From contig JBHLPR010000027.1 in the NCBI GenBank assembly GCA_048939245.1, positions 1-28,717 of the forward strand: DNA of 28,717 nucleotides. Direction: 5' to 3'. This DNA is from Promethearchaeota archaeon. Its GTDB lineage: Archaea > Asgardarchaeota > Hermodarchaeia > Hermodarchaeales > Hermodarchaeaceae. How positions within the stretch are numbered: position 1 is the stretch's first letter; every line of letters begins with the position of its first letter. The notes beneath the pieces were generated by a model. That model had not been told where the DNA came from. It did not search any database and worked only from the letters and a program-made list of their open reading frames with translations. Position numbers and translations under genes: made by a program. Positions 397-22,593 of this stretch are shown here, piece by piece.

Positions 397-1035
397 ATGG
401 CTGGAGAAGAATTGTTGGTCTTCTGGATCATGGCAGCAATATTTGGTATCGCAACTGTGATGTTTACCTTACTTTCCTTTCGTTCAGATTCAAATGAGTT
501 TTATGCCTTCGTCGATATTCTCGTTACCTTCATAACAACGATTTCATATGTACTCATGGCGCTGGGGTTCTTAGTGGTCACTTCTGGTATTGGTGAACCG
601 GTGTATTGGAGTCGATGGCTCTTTTACATGGGTAGCTGTAGTTTACTGACCGTTTCTGTTGTAGTTATCCTTAAACAAACTCAGGCAATTAATTTCGCAA
701 AAATTCCTATCTTAACGATGCTTGTAATGTTCTGTGGTTTTCTCGCGGCTTTTATTACAAGTATTGAGCGATGGTGGTTCTTTGTATTCAGTTCCATTGC
801 CTACATTGCCTTATTAATCACCTTGTTTAAAGGGGTGCCTCGAGAAGGAATGAATTCACAACTTATGTGGTTCATCGTCATCTTCTGGTCTCTATTTCCT
901 GGCGTATTTATCCTTGCACCAACCGGTTTCGGCTTGATACCCACATTATATGCAGCGATTCTCTATGCTGCACTGGACGTGATAACAAAAATCGTCTATG
1001 GGTTCATTATCCTGTTTCGAGTGAAAGATAAGTAA
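397..1035 (+). CDS. Microbial rhodopsin of schizorhodopsin type (short 7-TM opsin, retinal Lys present)
   Basis: 212 aa with about 7 hydrophobic segments. Helix C YWSRWLFYMGSCSLL has Phe at the BR D85 position followed by S-C, as in schizorhodopsins. Helix F FWSLFP; helix G LDVITK (D194, K198). AGGAG RBS upstream. Confidence 0.88.
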   Translation: MAGEELLVFWIMAAIFGIATVMFTLLSFRSDSNEFYAFVDILVTFITTISYVLMALGFLVVTSGIGEPVYWSRWLFYMGSCSLLTVSVVVILKQTQAINFAKIPILTMLVMFCGFLAAFITSIERWWFFVFSSIAYIALLITLFKGVPREGMNSQLMWFIVIFWSLFPGVFILAPTGFGLIPTLYAAILYAALDVITKIVYGFIILFRVKDK

Positions 1036-1168
1036 TCTAAATAACAGAATCACATGGTCAAAGTGAGTATTGAGTCATAGTATAATCAGTGGTTCAGAAT
1101 TTAACCTCTGCCTGAATGCATCTAGTCTATCAAACTGTGACCACTAGTAATTTTTTCCAACTATCTCC

Positions 1169-2563
1169 TTATCGATTTAACGAAGTGGTCGCAAAGAGTT
1201 CCTTTGAATATTGACTCTCCTCTTTGTGATTTACTATTGGTTTTGGGTAATTGATTTGCGAATCAAATGGTGTTGGTTTAAACCAACGATGAATAAGTTT
1301 TGGTTGTAGGTCTGATAATTCTGGAATCCATTTCTTGATATACTCACATTTTACGTCGTATTTCTCTTGTTGGCGCCAGGGATTAAAAATTCGGAAATAG
1401 GGTTGGGCATCGGCTCCTGTTGAGGCTGCCCATTGCCAGTTTCCATTATTCACGCATGGATCATAATCGGTGAGGTGTTGTGCAAAATAGCGTTCACCCC
1501 ATCGCCAGTCGATATGGAGATCCTTGGTCAGGAAAGATCCGACAATCATTCGAACCCGATTGTGCATCCAACCCGTTGTATTTAGTTCGCGCATACCAGC
1601 GTCAACGATTGGGAAGCCGGTGTTTCCCTGACACCACATCTCAAAAAGAGTTTGACTGTAGTTCCATTGAAGGGAATCATAGCGTGATTTGAAGGCATTT
1701 TTGAATACGTAAGGGAAATGGAAAGCAATGTGGGTGTAGAAGTCTCGCCAGTAGAGCTGGCGTATTAATGGATGATTGGTTCCAAGGTGTTTGGTGATGG
1801 CATGATAGACTTCGCGAATTGAACACAACCCAAATTTGATATATGTTGATAAGCGTGTGGTTCCATGTTGGTTTGGAAAATCCCTCGTTGTCTGATAATT
1901 CTTGTAACGGCTGAGATTGGAGAGGATGTCTAAGCATGCTGCTCTATTACCTTGAACAAGAAGTGACTCGTTGGGTTTAGTTCTTATCTGCTTGATTATG
2001 CCAATTTTAGGTTTTTGAGGTGCTTTGCTTGTTTTCAGATAATTGGTGTAGGTGTTCTCTTTTGGAGTAGAAATTGGGCGTGCTGATGCCTTTTTGAAAA
2101 AGGGAGTAAATATTTTGTAGGGTTTGGTTTTTCCGGTAAAGATCATTTCTGGTTCATTTAGTAAAGAATCGCCGAATGAATGAAATCCCACTTTATAGTC
2201 CTTACAAATCTGTTTAATCTGAGTGTCTCTTCTCCGACTAAAGGGGGAGTAATCTCGGTTTATATAGAGTCCATCAATTTCATATTCTGTTAACAGGGAT
2301 GGAATGATCTTTTCTGGAATGCCTAAAAGGTAAAGGAGCTGGCTCTTCTTCTTTTTTAGTTGGGCATCTAAATCGTCAAGTGCTTCCATCATGAATTGGA
2401 TCGCATTCAGGTGGGGTTGGGCCTGTTCTATTAGCCGGGGATCAAAGATGAAGCAGGGAAGGGTTTTGTCCGAATTTGCTAAGGCATGAATTAATGCAGT
2501 ATTATCAGCCAGTCGGAGATCACGACGAAAAATGAATAAAGGCTTAACATAGGATTTATTCAA
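1169..2563 (-). CDS. phrB: Deoxyribodipyrimidine (CPD) photolyase
   Basis: FRRDLRLADN N-terminus, WRDFY, TGFPIVDAGMREL, GWMHNRVRM, DYDPCVNNGNWQW and FRIFNP FAD-binding motifs. Likely TTG start at 2563; the ORF track extends to 2611. Confidence 0.95.
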   Translation of the reverse strand: MNKSYVKPLFIFRRDLRLADNTALIHALANSDKTLPCFIFDPRLIEQAQPHLNAIQFMMEALDDLDAQLKKKKSQLLYLLGIPEKIIPSLLTEYEIDGLYINRDYSPFSRRRDTQIKQICKDYKVGFHSFGDSLLNEPEMIFTGKTKPYKIFTPFFKKASARPISTPKENTYTNYLKTSKAPQKPKIGIIKQIRTKPNESLLVQGNRAACLDILSNLSRYKNYQTTRDFPNQHGTTRLSTYIKFGLCSIREVYHAITKHLGTNHPLIRQLYWRDFYTHIAFHFPYVFKNAFKSRYDSLQWNYSQTLFEMWCQGNTGFPIVDAGMRELNTTGWMHNRVRMIVGSFLTKDLHIDWRWGERYFAQHLTDYDPCVNNGNWQWAASTGADAQPYFRIFNPWRQQEKYDVKCEYIKKWIPELSDLQPKLIHRWFKPTPFDSQINYPKPIVNHKEESQYSKELFATTSLNR

Positions 2564-2639
2564 GTTGGTGCCCCTAGCAATATATCGATATCGAATATAT
2601 GTGAGAAGCAATTCCTCAAGTATGTATGGGGTGAACTAA

Positions 2640-3116
2640 GTGTCGATTGTTAAATTACCACAAATGGAGCATCAGATGGTTGAGGATTTACTAAATTCTC
2701 AAGTGATTTGCCGCATAGCCTTTCGGGGGGATGATTATCCATACATGGCACCTTTTCAGTATGCTTATGTTGATGGAAATCTCTATTTTCATTTTACTCG
2801 CTATGGAAAGAAAATGAAACTGCTTGAAGAGGATAATCGGGTTGCGGTGGAGATTGAAGCTTTTGAGCCAGCTCTTCATCAATATTGTTTTGTCGTGTTT
2901 CGAGGAGAACTTGTTTTAGTTCGTGATTCTATGGAAAGGGAGAAAGCGATAAACCATATGGCTAAGTTTGGATCCGAAAAACTGTCAACTAATTTTCTAG
3001 CAGCACATGGGTTGAAGAGATCTGATGGCTGGCAAGCGTTGACAGTTGAGAAACCATTGAATATTGTGAAGCTCACAAACATCGTCGAAACAATTGCTTT
3101 GGGTTCGCCTGATTAA
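2640..3116 (+). CDS. Pyridoxamine 5'-phosphate oxidase-like / NimA-type FMN-binding split-barrel protein
   Basis: RIAF..YPYMAP..LYFH..GKKM..NRVAVE pattern; divergent from the photolyase. Confidence 0.8.
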   Translation: MSIVKLPQMEHQMVEDLLNSQVICRIAFRGDDYPYMAPFQYAYVDGNLYFHFTRYGKKMKLLEEDNRVAVEIEAFEPALHQYCFVVFRGELVLVRDSMEREKAINHMAKFGSEKLSTNFLAAHGLKRSDGWQALTVEKPLNIVKLTNIVETIALGSPD

Positions 3117-3247
3117 TTCGAACTGGGCTCTCTTAAAATGATAAATGAATACGAACAGATTGTTGGTCCTCAGTCTTGGAAGCGAACCGGAGCGATGGTT
3201 TTGCACCGGATGCTCAGACTGCGATTTATGCTGTCCACGAATTGTTT

Positions 3248-3523
3248 TTAGCCTTTGCGGAAGGCTATGCCAAAAGTTCCGCGTGGATAATTCCATTGGA
3301 TGGCGTCTTTATTGCATATGATTTTGCATGTGCCACATTCGATGCAGTCTTCATATTGGAATTGGACTTGGCCCTCGATAAGTTGAAAGCAGTGTGCTGG
3401 ACAGGCAAGTCTGCAGGGTTTGGATTCACATTCTTTGCATTCTTCAAAATTGACTAAAATGTGGGCTTCTTTATCGATATTGTATCGGAGCGTGCTAAGT
3501 TTGGTTTCAATATTATCCCTCAT
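3248..3523 (-). CDS. fixX: Ferredoxin-like protein FixX
   Basis: AHI, CxxC, CPAxC, CIECGTC and WxYPRGxFGI motifs; ATGA overlap with the upstream fixC. Confidence 0.9.
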   Translation of the reverse strand: MRDNIETKLSTLRYNIDKEAHILVNFEECKECESKPCRLACPAHCFQLIEGQVQFQYEDCIECGTCKIICNKDAIQWNYPRGTFGIAFRKG

Positions 3524-4818
3524 AGGCCTCTCACCGCTTGTAATCCATCGATCATGAGGTGTGGAATCGATAATTCGTGAACGATATTTTTGAGGAGTAG
3601 GTTAAGGAGCTTGGGTCGGGGTGTTGCTTTTGACTGGTATAATTGTAGGACTAACTCGTTGATGAAATCTGGATACCGCTCCATTAGGCGGGGGTTGCTT
3701 ACTATGGCTGGTGCATGACGAAACGTTTTCAGGTTTTTGAAAACAAAACTTTGTTTCATTAGATATTGATAATATTTCATGGTCTTTTTAGTAAAATCGT
3801 TCCGTTGTTGGGCTCTAGCGATTGTCGTGGCAGCAGCAATACCTGATGCGATAGCAAAGTTCATCCCTTCAAGAGCATAGCCAATATTAAGGGCGAACCC
3901 TGCAGCATCGCCTGTGACGAGAAAGCCATTGGAATACAACTTAGAAAGCGCTTGATATCCACCTTCGGGAACAAGGTGTGCTGAATATTCAATGTGATTT
4001 CCATCCTTGATTAATCGTTGAACATAGGGGAATTGTTTCAGATAATCAATGAATTCAAAGGATTTCGTTTTTATATCATTCTTGAAGGTTGGAAGCTTGA
4101 CGACTATTCCCAAAGAGAGGCTTTCACGGTTGGTGTAAAGAAACCCTCCACCAGGAAATCCCTTAGTACAGCCCAAATAGGTATGAGCTGCCCCCTCATC
4201 ATCTTCGAGGTGAAACCGATTTTCGATTATTTCACGGGGGAGTTGAATGACTTCTTTAATACCAAGGCCGATATTCTTGGTTTTTAGATCTTTGCGTAAA
4301 CCTGCATGCTCAGTTAGCAGTGAATTGATTCCATCAGCTGCAACAACTACATTTGCCCGAATCTCATCATCACCAGCTTTGATTCCGATAACACGGTTGT
4401 TTTCCCAAAGTAGGTTATCAACTCGAATGCCGGTGGCAAGGAGTGCTCCAGCTTCTTCTGCGCGTTTGGCAAACCATTGATCAAAGTCATAGCGGATGAT
4501 GGAATAGCCGTTATGTGGGGGCTTTTCAAGTCGTTTACTAGAAAAATCAAACGAGAGTGAAGATTGACCGCTTAGGAAGACAAGGTTCCTGTTGGTAATC
4601 GTCCGTTCGAGTGGTGCATCTTCCCAGAAATTTGGTATCAAATCATGAAGCACAGATCCAAATAGTACGCCTCCTGAGACATTTTTTTCTCCGGGAGTTT
4701 TTGCTCGTTCGATTAAAAGCACTTCATGCCCTGATTTGGCAAGGCTATACGCGGTGGCTGAACCAGCGGGTCCTGCTCCAACTACGATTGTATCGACTTT
4801 TTCAACCATTTTTTTCAT
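3520..4818 (-). CDS. fixC: FixC-family FAD oxidoreductase (ETF:quinone oxidoreductase-like)
   Basis: VGAGPAG, GEKNVSGG, ADGINS, GGGFLYTN, EYSAHLVPEGG and GDAAGF..EGMNFAIASG motifs; coupled to fixX. Confidence 0.88.
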   Translation of the reverse strand: MKKMVEKVDTIVVGAGPAGSATAYSLAKSGHEVLLIERAKTPGEKNVSGGVLFGSVLHDLIPNFWEDAPLERTITNRNLVFLSGQSSLSFDFSSKRLEKPPHNGYSIIRYDFDQWFAKRAEEAGALLATGIRVDNLLWENNRVIGIKAGDDEIRANVVVAADGINSLLTEHAGLRKDLKTKNIGLGIKEVIQLPREIIENRFHLEDDEGAAHTYLGCTKGFPGGGFLYTNRESLSLGIVVKLPTFKNDIKTKSFEFIDYLKQFPYVQRLIKDGNHIEYSAHLVPEGGYQALSKLYSNGFLVTGDAAGFALNIGYALEGMNFAIASGIAAATTIARAQQRNDFTKKTMKYYQYLMKQSFVFKNLKTFRHAPAIVSNPRLMERYPDFINELVLQLYQSKATPRPKLLNLLLKNIVHELSIPHLMIDGLQAVRGL

Positions 4819-4821
4819 TCC

Positions 4822-6348
4822 CTATGTGCTTTTTGATTTTTCTTCTATTGGGATGCCGTAATCTTCAAAAATTAAATCTGTCGACACTTTTCCGCTAAGG
4901 AATGCACTTGGGACGCCTCCGCCTGGATGCGTTCCTGCTCCAACAATATAAAGTCCTTTGACATCCCGTGAACGGTTATGGGGCCTAAACCATCCGGATT
5001 GGGTCATGAGGGGTTGTAATTGGAAGGCGTTGCCTTTGTATGCATTGAATTCTTGTTCAAAATCTTGTGGGGTGAAGACTTCGCATACCTCGATGTTCTC
5101 CAAAAGGTCGGGGAGATAATTATCATTGAGAAATTGTAGTACCTTGTCTCGAAAGGGTTCCTTCATTTGATCCCAATCAATACCCGAATCTTGGTTGGTT
5201 ACAGGCACACAGGCATAGAAGGTTTCACATCCTTCTGGTGCTAACTCTGGATCCGTTCGTGTGGGGACATGCAGGTAGATGGCAAAATCGTCGGGTAAGA
5301 TATGACGATCGAAGATATCCTTGACCAATTCCTTATATCGTGGGCTGAAGATGATATTGTGGTGAGGCATTTCCGGATAGCGTTTCTTTGTACCAAAATA
5401 GATCATAAATAGGCTCATGCTATACTTTGCTTTCTTGTATCGACGATTACTATTTTTGCGACGGTATTTCTTGTCAATTAGGCTCATGTATGTCATTGCT
5501 ACATCTGCGTTGCTGATCACAATATCGGCGGGATAGAGTTCTTTGTTGTTAACAATGACTCCGGTGACTTTTCGGTCTTCATCATCGACTTCTATCATGG
5601 TAACCTCTGAGTTGAGTTTGATTGTGCCACCGAGTTCTTTGAATAATCGTTCTAGGGCTTCAACGAGTCGATGGGTACCCCCTCGGACCCAGAGCATGCC
5701 ATATTCACTTTCGAGGTATGCGATTAGTGAATAGACGCTAGTAGTGGTAAAGGGGTTTCCACCGATGAAAAGAGGGAGAAAGGAGAACGCCATGCGAAGA
5801 TGGGGGTGTTTCATGTTGCTTGCTACAAGGCCATAAACGCTCTTATACGATTTCAGTCGGATTGCTGAAGGAACAATTTTTGCCATGCTCCACAGACTTT
5901 CAAAGGAGATCATGGCAAATTTCTCAAATCCCAATTCATAAATGGGTTTCAATAGCTTGAGCCAGCGATGATATCCTTTGATGTCCTTGGGGCTGATTTT
6001 TTTGATCTGTTCAGTAATTTCGTCAATAGTTCCAATATCAAAGTGGGAACCATCGGCAAAATGAAGACGATAATGTGGATGGATTGGTACTAATTCAATA
6101 TACTTGGAGGGGTCTCGTCCCACATCGTGAAACACATCTTCTACCACAAACGGCGGTGTTACAATTGTAGGTCCGGTATCGAACCTGTATCCTTTTCTTT
6201 CAAAGACACCTGCTCGACCTCCAAGTTGGTGACGTTTCTCTAATAATACAACTTGGTATCCTGCAGCCTGCATCCTTACAGCTGCGGATAGACCACCAAA
6301 TCCTCCACCGATCACAATCACATTAGATGGGGTAGTCGTTTGATTCAT
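4822..6348 (-). CDS. crtI: Phytoene desaturase
   Basis: IGGGFGGL FAD motif, FDTGPTIVT, GGNPF, HHNIIF and the C-terminal FRPHN..GAGTHPGGGVP signature; directly downstream of crtB. Confidence 0.9.
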   Translation of the reverse strand: MNQTTTPSNVIVIGGGFGGLSAAVRMQAAGYQVVLLEKRHQLGGRAGVFERKGYRFDTGPTIVTPPFVVEDVFHDVGRDPSKYIELVPIHPHYRLHFADGSHFDIGTIDEITEQIKKISPKDIKGYHRWLKLLKPIYELGFEKFAMISFESLWSMAKIVPSAIRLKSYKSVYGLVASNMKHPHLRMAFSFLPLFIGGNPFTTTSVYSLIAYLESEYGMLWVRGGTHRLVEALERLFKELGGTIKLNSEVTMIEVDDEDRKVTGVIVNNKELYPADIVISNADVAMTYMSLIDKKYRRKNSNRRYKKAKYSMSLFMIYFGTKKRYPEMPHHNIIFSPRYKELVKDIFDRHILPDDFAIYLHVPTRTDPELAPEGCETFYACVPVTNQDSGIDWDQMKEPFRDKVLQFLNDNYLPDLLENIEVCEVFTPQDFEQEFNAYKGNAFQLQPLMTQSGWFRPHNRSRDVKGLYIVGAGTHPGGGVPSAFLSGKVSTDLIFEDYGIPIEEKSKST

Positions 6349-6393
6349 TCTCTTTTCACCATCAATAATTCGTATCCTACTAATTACTCAAAG

Positions 6394-7347
6394 TTAGGGG
6401 TGAATTACGAACTCTCTCAAATCGCGTAAATATTCTCGCCGACATTGAAGAGAAATCCAGAACTTCTTCCATTTGGGTACATACACCCGTTTTTTGAAGA
6501 CATCATAATTCACTTTCTCGATTTCATCGAGAATATTTGCGTAAACACGAGCCGCAACTTTCACAGAAAATGCTGCAGCTGGTGGAAGATCTTGAATGCC
6601 AATTTCTGCTGTTGCATAGTTTGCACGAGCATTGGCAATTTCGAATTTAATTAAATTCCTGAAATTTGGAGTGATTTTTCGAGCTTCAAAATCTTCTCTT
6701 CTAATCCTGAACTTCTTACGTACCTCAACTGGTATGTAGATTCGTCCTTTATCGAAGTCTTCTGCAATATCCCGCAAAATGTTTGTTTGTTGCATGGCGA
6801 TTCCAAGATCAGAGGCTCGTTGAAGCGTCTCTGGATGGATAGCTCGCCAGATGTGGCACATAGAGAGTCCCACCGTGGATGCTACACGAAAACAGTAGAG
6901 TTCTAGCTCTTGTTGGGTTTGGATTTCTTGGTGATGAACGTCCATGCGGACGCCTTCCAGTAACTCATATAGGTATTGGACTGGGATTTGATATTTTACC
7001 AAGGTGTCTCCAAAGGCGTGAAATACTGGGTGGTTAAAGGTTTCTCCGTTGCTTAACCGGCTTATAATCTCGGCTAGTCTATTTATTTCAGTATCAATTT
7101 GTTTTGGCTCGAGGTCTATTTCATCAACGAAGTCATCAGCTAACCGGCAAAATCCATAAAGTGCAGCGATGCTTCTACGTTGTTCTGGTTCAAGGTAACG
7201 TGAAGCAAAAGAAAATGATTTGGCATGTTTTCCGAATAGGTTCATACAATAGTCGTATGCGCGGTTGAGATCGGCAGATGTGAAGTTATCCTTGGTTTGG
7301 ATTTGGGTTGGTATGACTTCTAGATGGTAACGTTCTCCCCTAATCAT
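6394..7347 (-). CDS. crtB: Phytoene synthase
   Basis: AKSFSFAS, LYGFCRLADDFVD, YCFRVASTVG and LGIAMQQTNILRDIAED..GRIYIP squalene/phytoene synthase motifs. Confidence 0.93.
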   Translation of the reverse strand: MIRGERYHLEVIPTQIQTKDNFTSADLNRAYDYCMNLFGKHAKSFSFASRYLEPEQRRSIAALYGFCRLADDFVDEIDLEPKQIDTEINRLAEIISRLSNGETFNHPVFHAFGDTLVKYQIPVQYLYELLEGVRMDVHHQEIQTQQELELYCFRVASTVGLSMCHIWRAIHPETLQRASDLGIAMQQTNILRDIAEDFDKGRIYIPVEVRKKFRIRREDFEARKITPNFRNLIKFEIANARANYATAEIGIQDLPPAAAFSVKVAARVYANILDEIEKVNYDVFKKRVYVPKWKKFWISLQCRREYLRDLREFVIHP

Positions 7348-7551
7348 TGATTTAACGCTCCAATAGGCTAAACTTAACGGGGTTGATTTTGGGTTGGGGG
7401 GATATTTTTTGCTTATAAATAATTTCCTCTTACTATCGTCATAATCTAATACATATCACAATTTGTTTAAAGAACAATTAGACGTCACAATAATGCATAA
7501 TGATTAAATAAAGCAAGCTATGACAGCGCTTTATTCTGAGGGAACGCTACA
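7348..7551. promoter_or_regulatory. AT-rich divergent promoter region between crtB and crtD
   Basis: 204-bp non-coding gap between head-to-head operons, with TATA-like boxes (TTATAAAT, TTAAATA) and a short TTGTT-N5-AACAA inverted repeat. Confidence 0.55.
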
Positions 7552-9030
7552 ATGGCTATTCAGAACATATTGGTTATTGGTGCAGGCGTAGGCGGATTAT
7601 CTGCTGCTGCCTTACTAGCAAAAGAAGGCTATGATGTCACCATCATTGAAAGGAATGCAGAACCCGGAGGACGGGCGCGAGTTTGGAAAACCGAAGGATT
7701 TGTCTTTGATATGGGACCCTCTTGGTACCTGATGCCTGAAATCTTTGAGTATTTTTTTAATGAATTTGGGAAATCAGTTTCGGATTATTATGAATTAATA
7801 CGGTTGGATCCGAATTATCGCATTTTCTTTGGCACTGACGATATTGTCGAGATTACTGCTGATCTTGAACCAAATCTGCAAACTTTTGAAGGATTTGAAG
7901 CAGGTGGTTCGAAGAAACTCCAAGAATATTTGGACAAAGCCAAGGACACCTATGAGTATATGATGGAAGGCATCATGTACAAAGACCTAGACAGCTTTTG
8001 GTCAATGTTTAGTCCGTCATTAATGAAAGCAGGAATGAAATTGCACATCCTAAGTAACATTGATGAATACGTCCAAAAATTCTTCAGAAGTGACCGTGCT
8101 CGAAAAATTCTAGAATATCCAATTGTGTTTCTTGGTGGAAATCCGAAAAATACTCCTGCGCTCTACTCTATCATTTCACATATTGATTACAATCTGGGTG
8201 TCTGGTATCCGCGAGGTGGTATCGGGAAAATCCCTGAAAGTCTAATGAATTTGGCAAAGGAGCAAGGTGCTGATATCCAGTTTGGGGTTGAAGCAACTCA
8301 TATTGATGTAAAGAATCGCTTTGCCCATCGAGTCCAAACATCAGAAGGTGGCATTGATACAGACTTGGTGGTTGTCAATGCTGATTATCCCTGGAGTGAA
8401 ATCAATTTACTTGACTCATCATATGAGACTTATCCTGCAAAATATTGGGAGAAGAAGGTAATTGCTCCTTCCGCATTCGTTGTCTATCTAGGCGTTGATA
8501 GGAAACTGGACCAGCTCACTCACCATAATGTCTTTTTAGAATACGATTGGGTTCAACATTTCGACCAGATTTTCAAGAAACCTTCATGGCCTGATAAGCC
8601 TGCATACTATGTCTGTTGTCCATCAAGATACGATTCCTTGGTAGCTCCAAAGGGCAAAGAGAATATTTTCATTACCGTTCCCATTTCGCCTGGAATTGAA
8701 GATACACCAACAATTCGTAGCGCGTATCTTGACAAAATTATCGCTCATATGGAGAAACTTATTGGTGAACGATTCCGAGACGAAATAAGTGTTAAGCGGA
8801 TTTTCTCGTTGAATGATTTCTCTAAAGATTATAATGCATACCAAGGGACTGCCGTTGGTCTCACTCATACTTTTCGCCAATCTGCTTTCTTCCGTCCACG
8901 ACACCGAAGTAAGAAAGTGAAAAACCTTTACTACACAGGTCAGTACACGCATCCTGGAATCGGGGTGCCAATGGCCCTTGTTTCCTCAAAGATTGTCACT
9001 GACCAAATCAATAAACACTTTGAAGGCTGA
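7552..9030 (+). CDS. crtD: Second CrtI-family carotenoid desaturase, probably carotenoid 3,4-desaturase CrtD
   Basis: IGAGVGGL, FDMGPSWYLMP and HTFRQSAFFRP..TGQYTHPGIGVPM motifs. First gene of a desaturase-elongase-hydratase triplet as in haloarchaea. CrtD versus CrtI is inferred from context only. Confidence 0.72.
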   Translation: MAIQNILVIGAGVGGLSAAALLAKEGYDVTIIERNAEPGGRARVWKTEGFVFDMGPSWYLMPEIFEYFFNEFGKSVSDYYELIRLDPNYRIFFGTDDIVEITADLEPNLQTFEGFEAGGSKKLQEYLDKAKDTYEYMMEGIMYKDLDSFWSMFSPSLMKAGMKLHILSNIDEYVQKFFRSDRARKILEYPIVFLGGNPKNTPALYSIISHIDYNLGVWYPRGGIGKIPESLMNLAKEQGADIQFGVEATHIDVKNRFAHRVQTSEGGIDTDLVVVNADYPWSEINLLDSSYETYPAKYWEKKVIAPSAFVVYLGVDRKLDQLTHHNVFLEYDWVQHFDQIFKKPSWPDKPAYYVCCPSRYDSLVAPKGKENIFITVPISPGIEDTPTIRSAYLDKIIAHMEKLIGERFRDEISVKRIFSLNDFSKDYNAYQGTAVGLTHTFRQSAFFRPRHRSKKVKNLYYTGQYTHPGIGVPMALVSSKIVTDQINKHFEG

Positions 9031-9041
9031 GGTTCTAAGCA

Positions 9042-9902
9042 ATGAGTAGCATAGCACGCCTTGCATGGCGGATTTCACGACCACGATTTTGGCTCTACTT
9101 AGGAGGTACGTACCTCATTGGTTATTCCATCGGGGTAACCACGCTCATCCACTTCCTCAATCCCTTCTTCGCGCTTCAACTCTTTTTCTTCATGTTCCCT
9201 GCCAATGTCTTCCTATATGGAGTGAACGACTTCTATGACGAGGACACTGACATCTTTAATCCCAAAAAAGATGACAAGGAATATCGCGTCACTTCCAAGG
9301 ATCGACGAAATCTGCTTGCCCTTATTCTAGTTTCATTCATATTCGGAATAATCCTCATGCTACTTCAACCTGATATCATCGCAATGGCTCTTTTTGGAGT
9401 ATTTCTGTTGCTCTCCTTTCTATACAGCGCTAAACCTATTCGGTTTAAAGCCCATCCATTCATTGATTTCATGTCAAATTTCCTCTATGTTCTCCCCGCA
9501 ATCATTGCCTTCTATCAACTTCGCTTCTTCATTCCCCCGATCCTGCCTCTTTTCGCTGCATTCATGTGGACTTCAGCTATGCACCTTTTCTCAGCCGTTC
9601 CCGATATAGAGGCTGATAAACAGGCGAATATAACCACAACGGCCGTTCTTATCGGAGCTATCCCCTCTCTAATTCTTTGCTTCTCCTTTTGGTTCATTTT
9701 TGCCGTTATTCTGGTTTTTCTCGTTCCTTGGAATCCTCCCTGGAATGTGCTAATGTTTGTCTATCCTGCTATCCCCCTCTATCTTCTTCTGCGTCGAAAA
9801 GCGAACATTGAGAAAGTTTATTGGCTCTATCCTTATTGGAACGCTGTCTTCGGGTTACTCCTATTCTTCACCATTACTATTCCAAAAATCGTGATCCCTT
9901 AA
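9042..9902 (+). CDS. lyeJ: Lycopene elongase (UbiA-family prenyltransferase, LyeJ/CrtEb type)
   Basis: SRPRFWLYL, NVFLYGVNDFYDEDTDxFNPKK, YSAxPIRFK and MHLFSAVPDIEAD motifs; multiple TM segments; position between desaturase and CruF. Confidence 0.85.
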   Translation: MSSIARLAWRISRPRFWLYLGGTYLIGYSIGVTTLIHFLNPFFALQLFFFMFPANVFLYGVNDFYDEDTDIFNPKKDDKEYRVTSKDRRNLLALILVSFIFGIILMLLQPDIIAMALFGVFLLLSFLYSAKPIRFKAHPFIDFMSNFLYVLPAIIAFYQLRFFIPPILPLFAAFMWTSAMHLFSAVPDIEADKQANITTTAVLIGAIPSLILCFSFWFIFAVILVFLVPWNPPWNVLMFVYPAIPLYLLLRRKANIEKVYWLYPYWNAVFGLLLFFTITIPKIVIP

Positions 9903-10657
9903 TGAGTCTCAATCAGTTCAATCGTATTATTCCATTTCTATCTATTCTCATAGGCTCTTATGTCGCAAGCTACTTTTTCTTCTTCTTTCCTGTTGCGCTG
10001 CTCCAAGGTAGCCTTAGTATAGTTATCCTTCTTGTCGCATTACCCTGCTTGTTTTTTCTATATCACTGCGTTGGTTGGAAAAGCACACTCCTCATTGTAC
10101 TCACCCTAGGCGGTTTGGTTTTATTAATTGAAAGTATTGGGTTGTTGACAGGGTTTCCATATGGGGTCTTCTATTACACCGATTTAGTTGGATTCAAAGT
10201 CTTTGGGTTAGTGCCTTGGGCTGTTCCATTCGCGTTTTTACCGCTGCTCCTGGGGGCAATTACATTATCCATTCATTATATCGAAACCCCCTGGAAATTA
10301 ATTCTGGGAACTGCATTGCTTTTAGTAGTTATAGATTTGGTTATCGATCCGATTCTCGTGCACTTGGGGGTTTGGGTGTGGGTGCCGCCTGGAGCATATT
10401 ATGGCGTACCAATCTCTAATTTCGTTGGATGGTTCATAACAGGTCTAATAACCGTCTCGATTTTCTTTGTTCTCATCAAACACCGATTTAATCCAAAGCC
10501 CAGACTACCAATTTTCATTGCCCTAAGTCTTGTCCTTACATTGGCTTTCTGGTCTGGCTATGCTTTGTGGTCTATGCTTTATATCCCATTTGTACTCAGT
10601 CTCTGCTTACTTGGGCTATTCCTATTTACATTCGTTAAATACTGGCCTGTGAATTAG
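9902..10657 (+). CDS. cruF: Carotenoid 1,2-hydratase CruF (bisanhydrobacterioruberin hydratase-like)
   Basis: IESIGLLTGFPYG..Y..G..VP, DLVIDP and W.W...G.YYGVPISNFVGW motifs. ATG at 9902 overlaps the lyeJ stop (TAATG). Confidence 0.85.
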   Translation: MSLNQFNRIIPFLSILIGSYVASYFFFFFPVALLQGSLSIVILLVALPCLFFLYHCVGWKSTLLIVLTLGGLVLLIESIGLLTGFPYGVFYYTDLVGFKVFGLVPWAVPFAFLPLLLGAITLSIHYIETPWKLILGTALLLVVIDLVIDPILVHLGVWVWVPPGAYYGVPISNFVGWFITGLITVSIFFVLIKHRFNPKPRLPIFIALSLVLTLAFWSGYALWSMLYIPFVLSLCLLGLFLFTFVKYWPVN

Positions 10658-10684: not shown

Positions 10685-11554
10685 CTAAAAGAAGATGTAA
10701 TTCAGAAGAGTCGCGAAGACTAGCACAAGACAAATCGTAACAAGATATCTTGGTGCACGATAACGCATTTGAACCGCGTTAGGCGTTGTAGGGGTTTTTA
10801 CTAATTGCACACTCCGATAAATCAACCAGCAAGAGGACACCACCGCCACTATGAGGTAAAGAAACCCAAGTTGACCTATGACGCCAATTACAATACTCAT
10901 TATTGATGCTATTGAAAATAAAACTAGGATTAGTTGCGCAGCGCGTTTCGATGAAATCGCTGTAGAAAATGTAGTGACTTTGTTTACTTTATCAATATCG
11001 ACATCTTGAACTTCACTGATGAGAGTACGGCCCATTTCCCAGGACATCCCAAAGAACACAAAAAAAAGAACGAAAGTTGGGAAATACTGGCCTGTGATTG
11101 CGGCGCTACCCAAGAGAATGATAAAAAACACGGCTAGCATGGTGCACACAAAACTGTACGGAATTTCCTGCTTACGCATGTAATTGTATGCAAAAGGCAA
11201 GGGTATAGCAATGAACGCAAGAAGCACACACAACGGATTAAGGAAGAAAGTGAGCACTACTGCTACCACGCCATATGTCAAACCAAGAATTAAGGCTAAT
11301 CTCGGGGGAACTACTCCGCTAGGAATTACCCGGTTCGCGGTTCTCGGATTTTTTTTATCAGTTATCCAATCAAAGTAGTCATTCAATGTGTGAGCAGAAG
11401 CAATTGCTAACGCAACAGCAACATACCCAGTAAGAAAAGGAATGAAAAACGGAATCGTATTAGTACTCAGAAAAGTTGCAGCTATGTAAAAAGATGTGGT
11501 GGTTAGAAGTACGTAGGGTCGAGTTAGTGAAACAAGTCCCCTTAACTTATCCAT
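10685..11554 (-). CDS. UbiA-family prenyltransferase (DGGGP synthase-like paralog, substrate unknown)
   Basis: LTRP, LNDYFDxxxDxxNPRTANRxIPSG and a second acidic motif EVQDVDID; about 8-9 TM segments. ATG at 11554; ORF track starts at 11569. Confidence 0.8.
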   Translation of the reverse strand: MDKLRGLVSLTRPYVLLTTTSFYIAATFLSTNTIPFFIPFLTGYVAVALAIASAHTLNDYFDWITDKKNPRTANRVIPSGVVPPRLALILGLTYGVVAVVLTFFLNPLCVLLAFIAIPLPFAYNYMRKQEIPYSFVCTMLAVFFIILLGSAAITGQYFPTFVLFFVFFGMSWEMGRTLISEVQDVDIDKVNKVTTFSTAISSKRAAQLILVLFSIASIMSIVIGVIGQLGFLYLIVAVVSSCWLIYRSVQLVKTPTTPNAVQMRYRAPRYLVTICLVLVFATLLNYIFF

Positions 11555-11622
11555 ATCAATTACTTCCAAGATTCAATTAATTAGTATTTCAGTTAGGGCT
11601 AGTCCACTAAAGTAGTGGTACA

Positions 11623-12138
11623 CTAAGAGATTTTTTCGATGACATCTTGTGCGAATCGACGGGCTCGTTGAAGTGCTTCTTCATCTGGAAATCCTCTTGG
11701 CATATCTCTTGCATGTTTTACCCGTTCAACTAATTGTGGGTTCTCAGATTGGAGCATTCCTTCAATAAGTTGCTCACTCATATCACCCTGACAGTGGAAA
11801 AGGTCAACAATGTCTGCTCCCTTAGCAGCATCCCTGCATTTTTGTAACCACTCTTGAAGGGGCGGCGCTTGATCAGGAGAGCCATGAGTGATCACTAATG
11901 CGATTCGCCGGCCATTGACATTTTCTTCAAGCCAGTCCTTTGACTCAGGACCTGGCCCAAACATCTCGATCGGAAATCCGACGAAGGACAAATCGTAGCC
12001 TTCTAAGGATATAGTGTCGTCCCATGGTTTTTGTTCTTTTTAAATTTGAACGGCGTCAAACATTGCATCAATAACCTGTTTTGTGTTACCAGTTGCTGTT
12101 CGATATGTAAAGAGGACTTTCAGGATACCAACCTCCAT
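11623..12138 (-). pseudogene. Flavodoxin-family gene interrupted by an in-frame TAA at 12040-12042
   Basis: The same frame upstream of the listed ORF reads MEVGILKVLFTYRTATGNTKQVIDAMFDAVQI*KEQKPWDDTISLEGYDLSFVGFPI. It contains the flavodoxin Y-x-T-x-T-G-N-T loop, then THGS, CQG and PDEEALQRARRFA. Confidence 0.85.
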
Positions 12139-12352: not shown

Positions 12353-12622
12353 ATGTTTAATGAAGATAAGCAAAGACGTCCTCCATCCCATATAGTACAT
12401 AAGAAAAGGACCAAACGTGTTCGAGTTATCGTCAAAGGGTATATGCGTCCTGATGGTTCCTCCTATCATGTTGTCATTCCAAAGCAAATTCGTCAAATGA
12501 TGGAACTGGAGGGTGGCGAATATTTTTTGATGTCCGCTAGTCCACGACGAGATGAAATTCGTCTACGACGGGTTGATTTCTTCAATGACGAAGATGAAGG
12601 GTCGAACTCTTCAACAAAATAG
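12353..12622 (+). CDS. AbrB/MazE/SpoVT-family DNA-binding protein
   Basis: GSSYHVVIPKQIRQMMELEGGE swapped-hairpin signature. Confidence 0.8.
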   Translation: MFNEDKQRRPPSHIVHKKRTKRVRVIVKGYMRPDGSSYHVVIPKQIRQMMELEGGEYFLMSASPRRDEIRLRRVDFFNDEDEGSNSSTK

Positions 12623-12743
12623 ACTAAGTTGATTGTTGACCTTTCCTTTATTTTATTTGAATATCAAGCGCTAGCTCCGACAGTTCTTTAATCCTATCGG
12701 CAAATAGGAATCTGATAGATCACGTTTTGCTGTTGGTGGCTAT

Positions 12744-14846
12744 GTGATTCAACTTATTGGTGTGCTTGCTGAAGACGGTGTGCCAGTTCGAATTCGGGCA
12801 TTTGTAGATGTAGAATCTGCATCAGTCCTTGGTGGGATTGTTGAGGTTTTGAAAGGATTATCCTCTGAACTGGAACTGGGACAGGTTCAGCGTTTACAAT
12901 TTCAGGAAAATACTCTGCTTGTTACCGAGGCTGAAAAAGGCTATTCAATTATCGCCTTGGCGGATAAAGCGGAAGATTATGTGGAAGGCTTGTTACGTGT
13001 TATCCGAATTGCTATCGATGACTCATCTTTGGTGAAAGCTAGCGAACCTGTCACCGAAAGGATGCGAGTACTTGTAGATGCCATTTTAGATTTTTTTCTA
13101 CAACCAACCTTGGATGTAGCCCTCGAAGAGATCATTGATCCAGTATGGGGCGCTATTCTCGATCGGTTAAACAAGAATAGAGAGTATGCACAGGCTATTG
13201 AGAAGATTGATGTTCTTATTCGTAATTCCAAAGAGCCTGATCAAATCTGGGAAAAACTTGAAGCAAAGGCGAAAGGATCACTTTTAGAGGCTTTGAATCT
13301 CGCGTTCGTTGGACAATTTGATCAAGCTTGTGCAATCGCATTACAACTTGATGAACCACTTGCACAACTTTTTGCTGTCAAAACAGGCCTTCTCGCGCTG
13401 TCGATGACTCATTTAGCCGCTCCGCCCCGTTATCGACTACGCCGAATCGCGGAAGGTCTTCCTCTAAAATATCAACCGTATTCGGAATTAGCGTATGCTA
13501 CGACATTGTATTACGACCGCCTAATGCCGTATGAGGACTATCTGAAAATTTATCAGAATGCGGCTTCAAGATTTACATTCTCAGAGGACGACGAGGGTGT
13601 AATTTTTGCTTTCCTCTTCATTGATACTCGAATTGTAACGCTTCCTGAATTTGCACGTAAATTAGCAGGTTATTTTGAAAAGAAATCACCCATTCTTCAG
13701 AATTACATCCTGGCTATGTCAGATCGACAGCAGTTGTTTACTAAGCTCTATTCAAGCACATCCTATTCGGAATTTAAAAATCAGGTTAGCAGTTGGAAAA
13801 CAAAAATTAGTTCGATTCTAGAAGATGTTAATCAATTCTTAAAACCCGGCTTTTTAGGGAAGTTATTACGTAGCAACCCTGAAGCGGGTCTTAGAGGCTC
13901 GCTTAACTTAGGTACGTATATTGCGTTATATACGGCCTTGGCTGAATCGCCTGTTTTGAATCTTCGGGAACGAAAAGAAGTGCTCGAAGAGGTGTTATGG
14001 GTCTATTCACAATATTTCCGTAAACTACTAGAAAGCAAACTTCCACTCTTTAATTACACAATTGATAGTGTATTTCAAAGTGTTAGCGTTGTGTTAGGCG
14101 AGTTATTCTACCTGCGTTCAGGAGAAGCCCAACACGAACATATCCCAGTGGTTAAGAAATATTTACAGGACGTTCTGGATACTATGACAGTTGATTGGCT
14201 CCGTAAGCATCCAGATACTTCCACCCTGTTTGTATTGTCGAATGCTACATTTCCTGTCCTTCTCTTGGCAAATGCCACAGATGTACTCGAGGTTCGGTTC
14301 CTCTATCTAGCAATGCGTTTGCTTAATACGATGGCATTAATGAAATCACAGAAAATCGATGTTCAAGATTTTACTACGGATTTGCTTAATATCCAAACCT
14401 CGCTAGCAACTTTCATTATACAATTTCTTCCTGATTCACTTGAAAACCAGTATCTAGAACGTTGTGTACGGGTTATACTGCAGGGACATAAGTTTTTCAT
14501 CAAGCACGGAGTCTTATGTCGGGACGATATCGCTTCAGCAACGCTCCTGACAAGATACCTAAGACCGGCCAATTTAACTGATGACTATCGGATTTATGTT
14601 GATTCAGCGATCACTTTGAACCGGGTTGCTGTTCCTGATGTTCAACGGCATGAATCGGATATCGCTATGTTGGCAACGAATTATTTGGGGTTACTGAAAA
14701 AAGCTAGCCAGACCTTTGATGATGAGAAGTACGTGAAACTTGCGAAGACTGCGTTTCAGCAGACCGTTGAAGTTTGGAATAAATATGGATTCGAATATAA
14801 AGCTCAGGAATTCCAGAAACAATATGGCCGGATATTTCAAGATTGA
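12744..14846 (+). CDS. Large protein with N-terminal longin-like domain and helical solenoid-like remainder
   Basis: First ~120 aa (LIGVLAEDGVPV..LGGIVEVLKGLSSEL..VQRLQF..LLV..YSIIALAD) fit the longin beta-beta-alpha-beta-beta-beta-alpha pattern. The rest is Leu/Ala-rich amphipathic helices. Confidence 0.55.
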   Translation: MIQLIGVLAEDGVPVRIRAFVDVESASVLGGIVEVLKGLSSELELGQVQRLQFQENTLLVTEAEKGYSIIALADKAEDYVEGLLRVIRIAIDDSSLVKASEPVTERMRVLVDAILDFFLQPTLDVALEEIIDPVWGAILDRLNKNREYAQAIEKIDVLIRNSKEPDQIWEKLEAKAKGSLLEALNLAFVGQFDQACAIALQLDEPLAQLFAVKTGLLALSMTHLAAPPRYRLRRIAEGLPLKYQPYSELAYATTLYYDRLMPYEDYLKIYQNAASRFTFSEDDEGVIFAFLFIDTRIVTLPEFARKLAGYFEKKSPILQNYILAMSDRQQLFTKLYSSTSYSEFKNQVSSWKTKISSILEDVNQFLKPGFLGKLLRSNPEAGLRGSLNLGTYIALYTALAESPVLNLRERKEVLEEVLWVYSQYFRKLLESKLPLFNYTIDSVFQSVSVVLGELFYLRSGEAQHEHIPVVKKYLQDVLDTMTVDWLRKHPDTSTLFVLSNATFPVLLLANATDVLEVRFLYLAMRLLNTMALMKSQKIDVQDFTTDLLNIQTSLATFIIQFLPDSLENQYLERCVRVILQGHKFFIKHGVLCRDDIASATLLTRYLRPANLTDDYRIYVDSAITLNRVAVPDVQRHESDIAMLATNYLGLLKKASQTFDDEKYVKLAKTAFQQTVEVWNKYGFEYKAQEFQKQYGRIFQD

Positions 14847-20345: not shown

Positions 20346-20744
20346 TTATATCAACCTCATAAAATACTGCTACCTGTTCAATGAGAATCAGACTTTATAA
20401 TGTCTTGCTCAGCCATCAGAAACACACCGTAGTTAGCTGTTTCAGTTTACTCCCTCCCTCTCCTTCTATATATGAAATGAAGAATAGATACCACAGCGTG
20501 AAGAATCATGACTCGCACCCCTCCACTCAAATCTAAAACGCCCTATTTGAACCCACAAAAGTGGCGGATAACTTACTTACCTGATGATTCATCCGTTATC
20601 GACTTCGACAACGCATCCTAGTGATCGACCGCTATCTTGAAGCCCTTATTCACAAGGAGGAGCGGGGGAGCCAGGGGTACATCCTTCAGCACCGTAACAG
20701 TTAAAAACAAACTAAATTCCGCTGCAATTGCAGAAGTGACTCTA

Positions 20745-21428
20745 ATGCGAGAACCACAACTGCGACACGCGCTATTAGTGCTTTGTATTTTCATAATCGC
20801 GACAAGCACTTCTTCAGTACTTGCACAAAACGGTCAATGGGTATTAATCGGTGAAGACTATTTCACCTACATTGAACCATTATCCGGTCATTCCTCATGG
20901 ATTTTTAATATCACACATGGACCAAACGATCGGTGGGGCATCAATTGTACAATCAGCGGATTCGGCTTTCACCCAGCAACTGTAATCATCTGTGATGAAC
21001 CAGGTTATCATCAGTGGATTGAAACCGGAAATACCCACCAGTGCCATTTTGTTCAAGCCATCAACTATAGTTTGCACACCACTGTCGACCTTCCACATCC
21101 AAGTCAGTGGTACTTCATCCTCAATAACAGCTGTCCAGTGACTCTCTACTTCTCCTTACGCCTTACCCACTACCATTGGGCTACTGGACCCACAATGCCA
21201 CCACCAAATCCTTTTGAAGGAATCAGTAACCTCTTCGGATATCTAATAATCATTGGTCTCGTCGTCTTCATACTAATACCCTGTATTTGCCGAGTCAACT
21301 GTTTCAGTTTGTTCCGTTGGCGAAGAAATAAACATCCTCCCAAAAAAATGGAAAATCCCCAGACTATCATCGTGGTTATGACCCCTGAACAACTCGAACG
21401 GCACGCTGAAGACGACGATTACTATTAA
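20745..21428 (+). CDS. Hypothetical type I membrane protein (signal peptide, beta-rich extracellular domain, TM, Cys/basic tail)
   Basis: Hydrophobic N-terminus ending VLA-Q, beta-rich domain with P..SQWYFILNN, Pro linker, TM YLIIIGLVVFILIP, tail CICRVNC..RWRR. Likely ATG at 20745. Confidence 0.7.
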   Translation: MREPQLRHALLVLCIFIIATSTSSVLAQNGQWVLIGEDYFTYIEPLSGHSSWIFNITHGPNDRWGINCTISGFGFHPATVIICDEPGYHQWIETGNTHQCHFVQAINYSLHTTVDLPHPSQWYFILNNSCPVTLYFSLRLTHYHWATGPTMPPPNPFEGISNLFGYLIIIGLVVFILIPCICRVNCFSLFRWRRNKHPPKKMENPQTIIVVMTPEQLERHAEDDDYY

Positions 21429-21555: not shown

Positions 21556-22593
21556 ATGAGTAAACCCCAATTTATTTTCAAAGTCCCCGTAGCCGGAGAC
21601 GGTGCCGTCGGCAAGACCAGCCTCATCGTCCGGTACACCCAGGGAACTTTTACTGAGACGTACAAAATGACTATTGGCACCTCTTTTGCGGTGAAAACAG
21701 TTGATTTAGATCAGGTGATAGTGAAGCTGCAAATTTGGGATTTGGCGGGACAACCACATTTTGGAGGGGTGCGTCCGTTATTTTATCAGGGGTCAACGGG
21801 CGTCATTTACGTATTTAGTGTGACGGATCGAGCCTCGTTTGATCATTTGGCGGGTTGGCTTGAGGAGGCGCGGAAGAATTCAGGGAATATTCCGGGAATC
21901 CTGATTGGGAATAAGACTGACTTGATGGATCAACGAGTGGTGTCGCGTGAGGAAGCGGAGGCATTCGCGGCCCAAGCAAGCTTAAGGTATATTGAGACAA
22001 GCGCGAAGATGGATGAAAATGTAGGGGATGCCTTTCATTTAATGGCAGCGACGATTATGGAGACCAAACCGGAGTATGGCGTCACCTCTGAAGCTCCGGT
22101 TAAAGTTGCAGTTCCTGAACCAGAAGCGGAACCAGAGGTTAGTCAGCCAGAAGAGCCACAAGTGACGGCTTCTGAGGTTGAACCTGAACCGGAAGTTGAA
22201 CCGATTCCCCTTATCTTAGATGAGTCTGAGGTTCAGAGTCCACCAACACCTGTGCCTGAGCCAGTAGCCCCTGAACCTGAGGTTATTAAGCCGGTTGAGC
22301 CTCCACCGGTAAGTGAATCCGAACCAGTCTCCGTTTCTCCTCCAAGTGAACCCGAGGTGTCATCTGAAGATGTCGTTGTGGAAGTGAAATCCACATCTAA
22401 CCTTGTGGAATTCGTAGGGATTGACCCTCACAGTCTTTCAGAGGAGGATTTTGAGAAAAGATCGATTCATGCAATGCAACGGTTAGGCGTAAGTGAAGTA
22501 GGAGTGTTGGGGACGTTTCTTCGTAGTTTGATTCGTCAAGGGCAACGGGGTGTTGTGATTGAAAGTTTGGAGAGTCTCCAGAAAGATCGCTAG
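21556..22593 (+). CDS. Rab-like small GTPase with long Pro/Glu-rich C-terminal extension
   Basis: G1 GDGAVGKT, G2 YKMTIG, G3 WDLAGQ, G4 NKTD, G5 ETSAK; RabF2 KLQIW intact; AGGAG RBS. Confidence 0.93.
   Translation: MSKPQFIFKVPVAGDGAVGKTSLIVRYTQGTFTETYKMTIGTSFAVKTVDLDQVIVKLQIWDLAGQPHFGGVRPLFYQGSTGVIYVFSVTDRASFDHLAGWLEEARKNSGNIPGILIGNKTDLMDQRVVSREEAEAFAAQASLRYIETSAKMDENVGDAFHLMAATIMETKPEYGVTSEAPVKVAVPEPEAEPEVSQPEEPQVTASEVEPEPEVEPIPLILDESEVQSPPTPVPEPVAPEPEVIKPVEPPPVSESEPVSVSPPSEPEVSSEDVVVEVKSTSNLVEFVGIDPHSLSEEDFEKRSIHAMQRLGVSEVGVLGTFLRSLIRQGQRGVVIESLESLQKDR

Follow-up and report, generated by a model that had tools for sequence, protein, structure and literature searches.

Where do the electrons of carotenoid desaturation go when O2 is not used to accept them? 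The textbook acceptors are O2 or the respiratory quinone pool, and electron disposal in strict or facultative anaerobes is poorly understood. The question is raised here by a 28,717-nt stretch of Asgard archaeal DNA (the window), which constitutes contig C110 of a metagenome-assembled genome (2.52 Mb, 88% complete) and in which the carotenoid genes crtB and crtI are followed on the same strand by fixC and fixX, predicted members of the electron-transfer flavoprotein (ETF):quinone oxidoreductase family. The association of FixC and FixX (FixCX) with carotenoid genes is unusual for that family, and it is real and recurring. A function in carotenoid desaturation is plausible, although the evidence against its necessity is substantial, and we tentatively propose that FixCX may be a quinone-pool redox partner for O2-independent desaturation.

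Gene order and predicted operon

The original prediction described four same-strand genes, the first two junctions being gaps of 45 and 3 nt and the third an overlap of 4 nt, and reading of the sequence confirmed the coordinates and junctions of the following open reading frames (ORFs):

6394-7347, minus strand: crtB, phytoene synthase, 317 amino acids (aa; PF00494, 244 bits), at the head of the predicted operon
4822-6348, minus strand: crtI, CrtI-family phytoene desaturase, 508 aa (TIGR02734, 567 bits against a cut-off of 238)
3520-4818, minus strand: fixC, EtfC/FixC-type flavin adenine dinucleotide (FAD) flavoprotein, 432 aa (429 aa from the ATG at 4809)
3248-3523, minus strand: fixX, ferredoxin-like EtfX/FixX protein, 91 aa, with motifs for two [4Fe-4S] clusters

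The 45 nt separate the crtB stop codon from the crtI ATG, crtI and fixC meet at TAG-GGA-ATG (a gap of 3 nt, or of 12 nt with the second ATG as the start, which is the choice of public gene calls and gives the 429-aa product), and fixC and fixX overlap at ATGA. We predict that crtB-crtI-fixC-fixX form a four-gene operon. A TATA-like element (TTTATAT) about 130 nt upstream of fixC was considered as an internal promoter and rejected, because it falls within the conserved GLYIVGAG coding motif of crtI. In profile searches, CrtB did not reach the equivalog cut-offs for CrtB and HpnD, and its probable role as a phytoene synthase is suggested by its context with crtI, crtD, lyeJ, and cruF.

Recurrence and phylogeny of the linkage

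Gene order was compared across a sample of 301 Asgard genomes, in which the family of the window (f1) is the one family of its GTDB class (19 genomes). In 7 of the 13 FixC-bearing f1 genomes (G000-G004, G009, and G011), crtI is directly followed by fixC-fixX, with FixC proteins 71%-100% identical and CrtI orthologues 76%-89% identical within the genus (58%-62% in the second family described below), and the same order was found on several metagenome contigs. The linkage also extends to a second family (f6, 76 genomes sampled), where it forms part of a larger arrangement that includes, in the window, these divergently oriented elements:

7348-7551: AT-rich divergent spacer between crtB and crtD, 204 bp, carrying TTTATAA some 60 nt upstream of crtB
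7552-9030, plus strand: crtD ("CrtID"), second CrtI-family desaturase, 492 aa (NF058655, 676 bits against a cut-off of 640)
9042-9902, plus strand: lyeJ-like UbiA prenyltransferase of the lycopene elongase type, 286 aa (NF009516, 291 bits against 205)
9821-10657, plus strand: cruF-like carotenoid hydratase (PF04240, 143 bits; TIGR03460, 116 bits, below the cut-off of 155)

The spacer is likely a shared promoter region. The NF058655 model describes a bifunctional phytoene desaturase/3,4-desaturase, and lyeJ adjoins crtD in every related cluster compared. The longest cruF ORF (TTG start) overlaps lyeJ by 82 nt (9821-9902); relatives are called at 251-271 aa, and the true start is probably later, near the lyeJ stop codon. 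The plus-strand order crtD-lyeJ-cruF is that of the bacterioruberin-type triad, and the pathway predicted from these genes is a bacterioruberin-type C50 pathway.

The complete seven-gene layout, with fixX, fixC, crtI, and crtB on one strand and crtD, lyeJ, and cruF diverging from them, is present in four of the five FixC-bearing f6 genomes (G130, G235, G052, and G104), at 48%-50% identity to the window for FixC, 59%-62% for CrtI, and 62%-64% for CrtD. All five FixC carriers in f6 encode CrtI, as against 17 of the 76 genomes overall. The prospect, entertained in the original prediction, that the linkage might be unique to this genome was therefore not borne out: a search for recurrent crtI-fixC-fixX neighborhoods found it in seven f1 genomes, four f6 genomes, and metagenome contigs.

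In a maximum-likelihood tree of FixC, the ETF-adjacent sequences formed one clade, with the f1 and f6 sequences outside it; the crt-linked groups of the two families were not sisters, and free-standing forms fell between them. A single clade of all crt-adjacent FixC was rejected (delta lnL 36.4, p-AU 0.006, for a group defined after the first tree had been seen). Because the two groups are non-sister and their joint clade is rejected, the linkage to crt genes has either been gained more than once or been long kept with losses, which argues against pure chance. The original prediction had asked where this FixC would be placed relative to ETF-linked FixC and to the geranylgeranyl reductases (GGRs): the f1 and f6 proteins lie outside the ETF-adjacent clade, and FixC of the window is of the EtfC type and not of the GGR or BchP type.

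FixC and FixX as members of the EtfC/EtfX branch

FixC aligned over its full length (residues 7-424) with EtfC of Thermotoga maritima (7KOE chain C, 270 bits), and matches to other solved structures were lower (71 bits for ETF:quinone oxidoreductase [ETF-QO], 2GMH; 59 bits for the GGR 3OZ2). Its FAD-binding motif, G14-x-G16-x-x-G19, is invariant. The protein marginally passed the cut-off of PF21162 (ETFQO_UQ-bd; 29.0 against 27.7 bits), and PF26311 (ETF-QO_FixC_C) is recorded for close homologues; the scores against NF007542 (FixC; 368 against 610 bits) and NF007450 (YdiS; 373 against 466 bits) were below the NCBIfam cut-offs, both of which belong to narrow subfamily models centered on Escherichia coli. 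We further compared eight crt-adjacent FixC sequences at 81 columns that are conserved at ≥85% in 71 ETF-linked FixC proteins. Of these columns, 73 are retained, and only five conserved positions are clade-specific.

FixX likewise matched its T. maritima counterpart (7KOE chain D, 75 bits) and PF05187 (28 bits against a cut-off of 24), and fell below NF011993 (66 against 166 bits). The eight cysteines of its two [4Fe-4S] clusters are invariant across 10 relatives, and it retains 24 of 28 ETF-linked signature positions, the changes being F to Y, Y to F, L to I, and G to D. The nearest bacterial relatives of FixC, from Aminicenantes and Acidobacteriota (47%-49% identical), are encoded in operons of the form acyl-CoA dehydrogenase-fixC-fixX-etfB-etfA, and fixC is a single-copy gene in the genome of the window. 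Matches to the two 7KOE chains and the retained signature positions thus uphold the identities originally given to FixC and FixX, which by sequence are standard members of the EtfC/EtfX branch of the ETF:quinone oxidoreductases. In this branch, two [4Fe-4S] clusters pass electrons to FAD and then to a membrane quinone. As FixCX are standard in sequence, this iron-sulfur (FeS)-FAD-quinone chemistry is favored over a new substrate.

Separation from ETF genes

We scanned FixC contexts with each prokaryotic species represented by a single genome and obtained 80 loci, 77 of them outside these Asgard lineages. Among those 77, etfA lies within 6 kb in 67 cases and crt genes are present in none; the three crtI-bearing loci are all Asgard. 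By contrast with this pattern, no ETF domain was detected in the window ORFs scanned, in agreement with the earlier claim that fixA and fixB are missing there. Across the whole genome, ETF domain matches are confined to contigs C83 and C118, where the sole ETF is an etfB/etfA pair split over contig ends (etfB, G000:C83:41046-41861, plus strand; etfA, G000:C118:26045-27064, minus strand). The etfB gene stops some 250 bp short of the C83 terminus and etfA begins 17 bp from the end of C118, and the two contigs probably join at etfB/etfA; etfA frames are about 400 aa in relatives, so this copy is truncated on the N-terminal side.

This ETF is 59%-60% identical to copies in f6 and in another Asgard family (f4), which marks it as the general Asgard ETF orthologue, and 29% identical to the fixCX-linked ETF of f4. 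Both crt-linked families have one ETF only, of the general Asgard type and not of the FixAB type. Judged by gene content and order, FixCX here has lost its otherwise near-universal adjacency to etfAB. We also considered whether phyletic patterns tie FixCX to ETF, and they were uninformative: ETF is near-universal in Asgard genomes (241 of 301 sampled), including families in which no FixC was found. Hence, the presence of ETF says nothing about the partner of FixC.

Elsewhere in the Asgard archaea, families f4, f19, f21, and f25, and also f13 (at 5.5 kb), carry canonical etfBA-fixCX clusters whose FixC is 38%-43% identical to that of the window. At one f4 locus (L031, G042:C1), two fixC-fixX copies with identical blastp scores against the window (7701-9326 and 12557-14182) lie 4.9 kb apart, and etfA-etfB follow the second copy only.

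Proposed role in O2-independent desaturation

Our favored reading, which we hold as possible rather than probable, is that a branch of the ETF:quinone oxidoreductases was uncoupled from ETF genes and recruited to Asgard carotenoid operons, where it keeps the quinone acceptor of CrtI and CrtD oxidized without O2. CrtI would introduce four double bonds and CrtD two, each delivering two electrons to a membrane quinone, probably of the menaquinone type. FixC and FixX would be translated from one message with CrtB and CrtI and would link this small quinone pool to a soluble carrier, either the single general ETF of the genome or a ferredoxin, such that oxidized quinone would be regenerated without O2 in an anaerobic counterpart of the plastid terminal oxidase (PTOX) that serves phytoene desaturation in plants. 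FixCX would then be an accessory that improves the pathway and not an obligatory part of it. The identity and family membership of these genes and their conserved synteny are established by the analysis; which way the electrons flow, with what partner, and to what benefit we infer.

The biochemistry of the desaturases bears on the point at which FixCX could act. CRTI needs O2 or quinones, which are the acceptors assumed in the original prediction, and reduces quinones by itself, naphthoquinones being poor direct acceptors (PMC3382138); in plant phytoene desaturase (PDS), a single buried cavity receives carotene and quinone one after the other (PMC5703498). Given that CrtI reduces quinones alone and that the two substrates share a buried cavity in PDS, our analysis suggests that a direct protein drain from CrtI to FixX is unlikely, and that coupling through the quinone pool is more plausible.

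The physiological setting is consistent with this proposal. No haem-copper oxidase was found in 18 sampled f1 or 76 f6 genomes; such oxidases occur in f13, f21, f25, and f29, where fixCX is ETF-linked and not beside crtI. The genome of the window, at 88% completeness, also yielded no matches to haem-copper oxidase, cytochrome bd, or the futalosine-pathway proteins MqnA/D. It does encode two NuoH-like proteins and a MenA-like prenyltransferase above the cut-off (128 bits against 102); the latter follows a GGR-like flavoprotein on contig C3 (G000:C3:114-1106 and 2615-3451), and the two may act as a pair in menaquinone prenylation and side-chain reduction. From these genes, a menaquinone-type pool is plausible in this archaeon.

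If the proposal is true, a dedicated FixCX partner would offer a testable answer to where electrons go in anaerobic desaturation, would show the ETF-QO family at work outside nitrogen fixation and ETF-linked catabolism, and would give FixCX a new physiological role as an anaerobic functional analogue of PTOX. It could also supply a practical part for anaerobic carotenoid production.

A number of observations weigh against the proposal. The direction required of FixCX, quinone oxidation, is the reverse of the characterized EtfABCX reaction, and direct reduction of quinones by CrtI is established. Searches of the 88% complete genome did not recover a full set of quinone biosynthesis genes, with MenB below the cut-off and no MqnA/D match. 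No FixC was found in 12 of the 17 CrtI-bearing f6 genomes, several of which are 94%-97% complete, or in the f1 genome G008 (same genus, 91% complete), which has crtI. Conversely, FixCX of the same clade stands free as a two-gene unit in five genomes (G010, G012, G014, G016, and G181), among them G016, in whose genus (four genomes) no CrtI was found. In a sister subclade of the same genus (G012 and G014; FixC 57%-60% and CrtI 77%-79% identical), fixCX lies 5-11 kb from crtBI on the opposite strand, flanked by the same genes as the rearranged cluster of G009. Since the same orthologues sit apart within the same flanks, the adjacency of crtI and fixC is possibly a product of local rearrangement, which can create or destroy it. 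Judging by these gene distributions, FixCX is thus dispensable for carotenoid synthesis and not restricted to carotenoid genomes. The original prediction that FixCX drains electrons from CrtI and CrtD under anoxia is partly supported: the setting fits it, its direct form is unlikely, and fixCX can be absent or free-standing.

The neighbors of free-standing fixCX share no consistent theme (an HAD hydrolase, phosphatases, a Pyr_redox_2 protein, and unknowns). Candidates for a replacement of FixCX downstream of crtI in relatives without it were likewise rejected, as only a restriction-modification pair, a radical S-adenosylmethionine protein, a PAS response regulator, and convergent genes are found there.

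Alternative explanations

A rival only slightly less probable than the favored reading is that FixCX is a housekeeping ETF:quinone oxidoreductase which, like its bacterial counterparts, passes electrons from the single general EtfAB to quinone in general metabolism (e.g., acyl-CoA oxidation) and was merely co-located with crtI by local rearrangement in a light-response island. The standard sequences of FixC and FixX and the acyl-CoA dehydrogenase-fixCX-etfBA operons of the nearest bacterial relatives are what such a role would lead one to expect. The genome also has one EtfBA, and all five FixC-bearing f6 genomes have ETF, but ETF is near-universal whereas FixC is rare and, in f6, nested among CrtI carriers, and the genome lacks an ETF of the FixAB type with which fixCX is associated in other organisms. 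Local gene order cuts both ways: in relatives, a lone fixCX is found between the same flanks (DoxD to one side; phosphodiesterase, TackOD1, Ras, and PALP genes to the other), with the crt genes rearranged about it, whereas two families have preserved the exact seven-gene layout at ~50% FixC identity, and the FixC tree requires two or more switches in the state of the linkage. The occurrence of FixCX in G016, where no CrtI was found, favors a general function; on the other hand, if a quinone reductase were expressed together with CrtI, the two would compete for oxidized quinone. On this reading, the placement of FixCX would persist by inertia or shared regulation and have no mechanistic link to carotenoids; should the linkage turn out to be passive, the locus would be an ordinary gene-order curiosity.

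It is improbable that FixC draws electrons from FixX to act as a tailoring reductase that saturates a double bond of the carotenoid or a precursor, as the original prediction had allowed in suggesting that FixC acts on the isoprenoid itself. FixC does belong to the GGR superfamily, with 122 bits to TIGR02032 and 59 bits to 3OZ2, but the former score is below the cut-off of 159, the BchP model TIGR02023 is further from being reached (68 against 343 bits), and the EtfC match of 270 bits is far above the match to the GGR structure. Precedents for such chemistry exist, in that GGR of Methanosarcina works with ferredoxin (PMC10821996) and the BchP paralogue CruI makes 1,2-dihydrocarotenoids (PMC6166724), and a patchy distribution at the end of an operon is typical of tailoring enzymes. 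The genome, however, already holds four GGR-like paralogues, to which FixC is 28%-31% identical, and FixCX is present in G016, in which no carotenoid genes were found. The near-complete retention of ETF-linked residues in FixC (73/81, with five clade-specific positions) and in FixX also disfavors a change of substrate.

Least likely of all is a direct relay, the literal form of the original prediction, in which reduced CrtI or CrtD docks on FixX-FixC in the place of ETF and electrons run through FeS and FAD to quinone: it draws on the same synteny and loss of ETF as the quinone-pool proposal, and the poor use of naphthoquinones by CRTI would give a motive for a menaquinone-built relay such as T. 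maritima EtfABCX (PMC10734219), but small acceptors reoxidize CRTI where its own flavin is bound (PMC3382138), the buried shared cavity of PDS (PMC5703498) gives no reason to expect a flavin exposed at the surface as in the mobile FAD domain of ETF, and CrtI works without FixCX in most relatives. A co-fold of CrtI (8-500), FixC (7-428), and FixX (7-91) from 10-row alignments gave a score of zero, which weighs neither way on binding.

Other features of the light-response island

The predicted operon lies within a light-response island (397-3116 and 7552-10657) composed of rhodopsin, photolyase, Pyridox_ox_2, and C50 carotenoid genes. On the fixX side (397-3116), it is flanked by genes for a 212-aa rhodopsin, a photolyase, and a pyridoxamine-oxidase-like protein (Pyridox_ox_2). 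This adds to the picture of light-exposed Asgard archaea equipped with rhodopsin, photolyase, and a C50 pigment pathway. In a close relative (L012, 9667-15058), genes for a CarH-like B12-binding protein, Staygreen, a peroxiredoxin, and a fasciclin are inserted between island genes, and in G008 a B12-binding gene is convergent on crtI.

Beside cruF are a gene for a second UbiA-family prenyltransferase (10685-11569, minus strand; best match NF009523, 115 bits, below the cut-off), which is kept beside the cluster in f1 relatives and not in f6, and one for a short Flavodoxin_3 protein (11623-11991, minus strand). Further along, a 345-aa protein (21556-22593, plus strand) begins with a small-GTPase domain of the Ras/Roc kind (PF00071, 170 bits) and is an Asgard-type eukaryotic signature protein; relatives have a 183-aa Arf/Ras gene near fixCX. 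Three ORFs, at 12744-14846 (plus strand), 20637-21428 (plus strand), and 26937-28676 (minus strand), encode 700, 263, and 579 aa, respectively, and had no Pfam or NCBIfam match.

Comparison with known systems

A full-text literature search found no paper in which FixC shares an operon with phytoene desaturase. For Ca. Kariarchaeum, a crtB-crtI operon that includes two genes of unknown function has been reported (PMC12137139); we considered these as fixCX and set them aside as probably belonging to another kind of operon, oxidase-bearing f13 and f21 having ~270-aa unknowns, and not fixCX, after crtI.

The closest system is EtfABCX/FixABCX (T. maritima 7KOE; Azotobacter, Rhodopseudomonas, and Pyrobaculum), which shares the fixC-fixX pair, the two-cluster cysteines, and the family positions with the window. 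Unlike that system, the pair here has no etfAB beside it and no FixAB-type ETF in the genome, and crtB-crtI stand upstream instead. Electron bifurcation is therefore not to be assumed. Mitochondrial and bacterial ETF-QO (2GMH) shares the fold and the logic of FeS, FAD, and quinone pocket, as reflected in the PF21162 match of FixC, but combines the flavoprotein and the FeS domain in one polypeptide, is a distant match, and always has ETF as its donor.

Bacterioruberin enzymes of haloarchaea have been characterized in an aerobic organism. The Haloarcula japonica genes c0507-c0506-c0505 and d1086 resemble the window in their crtD-lyeJ-cruF order and in providing two CrtI-family desaturases, both of which have both activities in that species (PMC11946383). 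GGR with its adjacent ferredoxin in Methanosarcina acetivorans (PMC10821996) and the CruI/BchO carotenoid 1,2-reductase of Chlorobaculum (PMC6166724) are drawn from the same flavoprotein superfamily and share with FixCX a small FeS partner or the C=C of a carotenoid or isoprenoid as a candidate substrate, whereas FixC of the window falls in the EtfC clade and not with GGR/BchP.

For the quinone-pool role proposed for FixCX, the nearest parallel is in plants and is one of function only. PTOX re-oxidizes quinone so that plant pigment synthesis continues. This O2-requiring di-iron oxidase has no sequence relationship to FixCX, which would instead have to pass electrons to ETF or ferredoxin; common to both would be a desaturase that reduces a membrane quinone, as plant PDS does (PMC4492965, PMC5703498), and a separate enzyme that re-oxidizes it.

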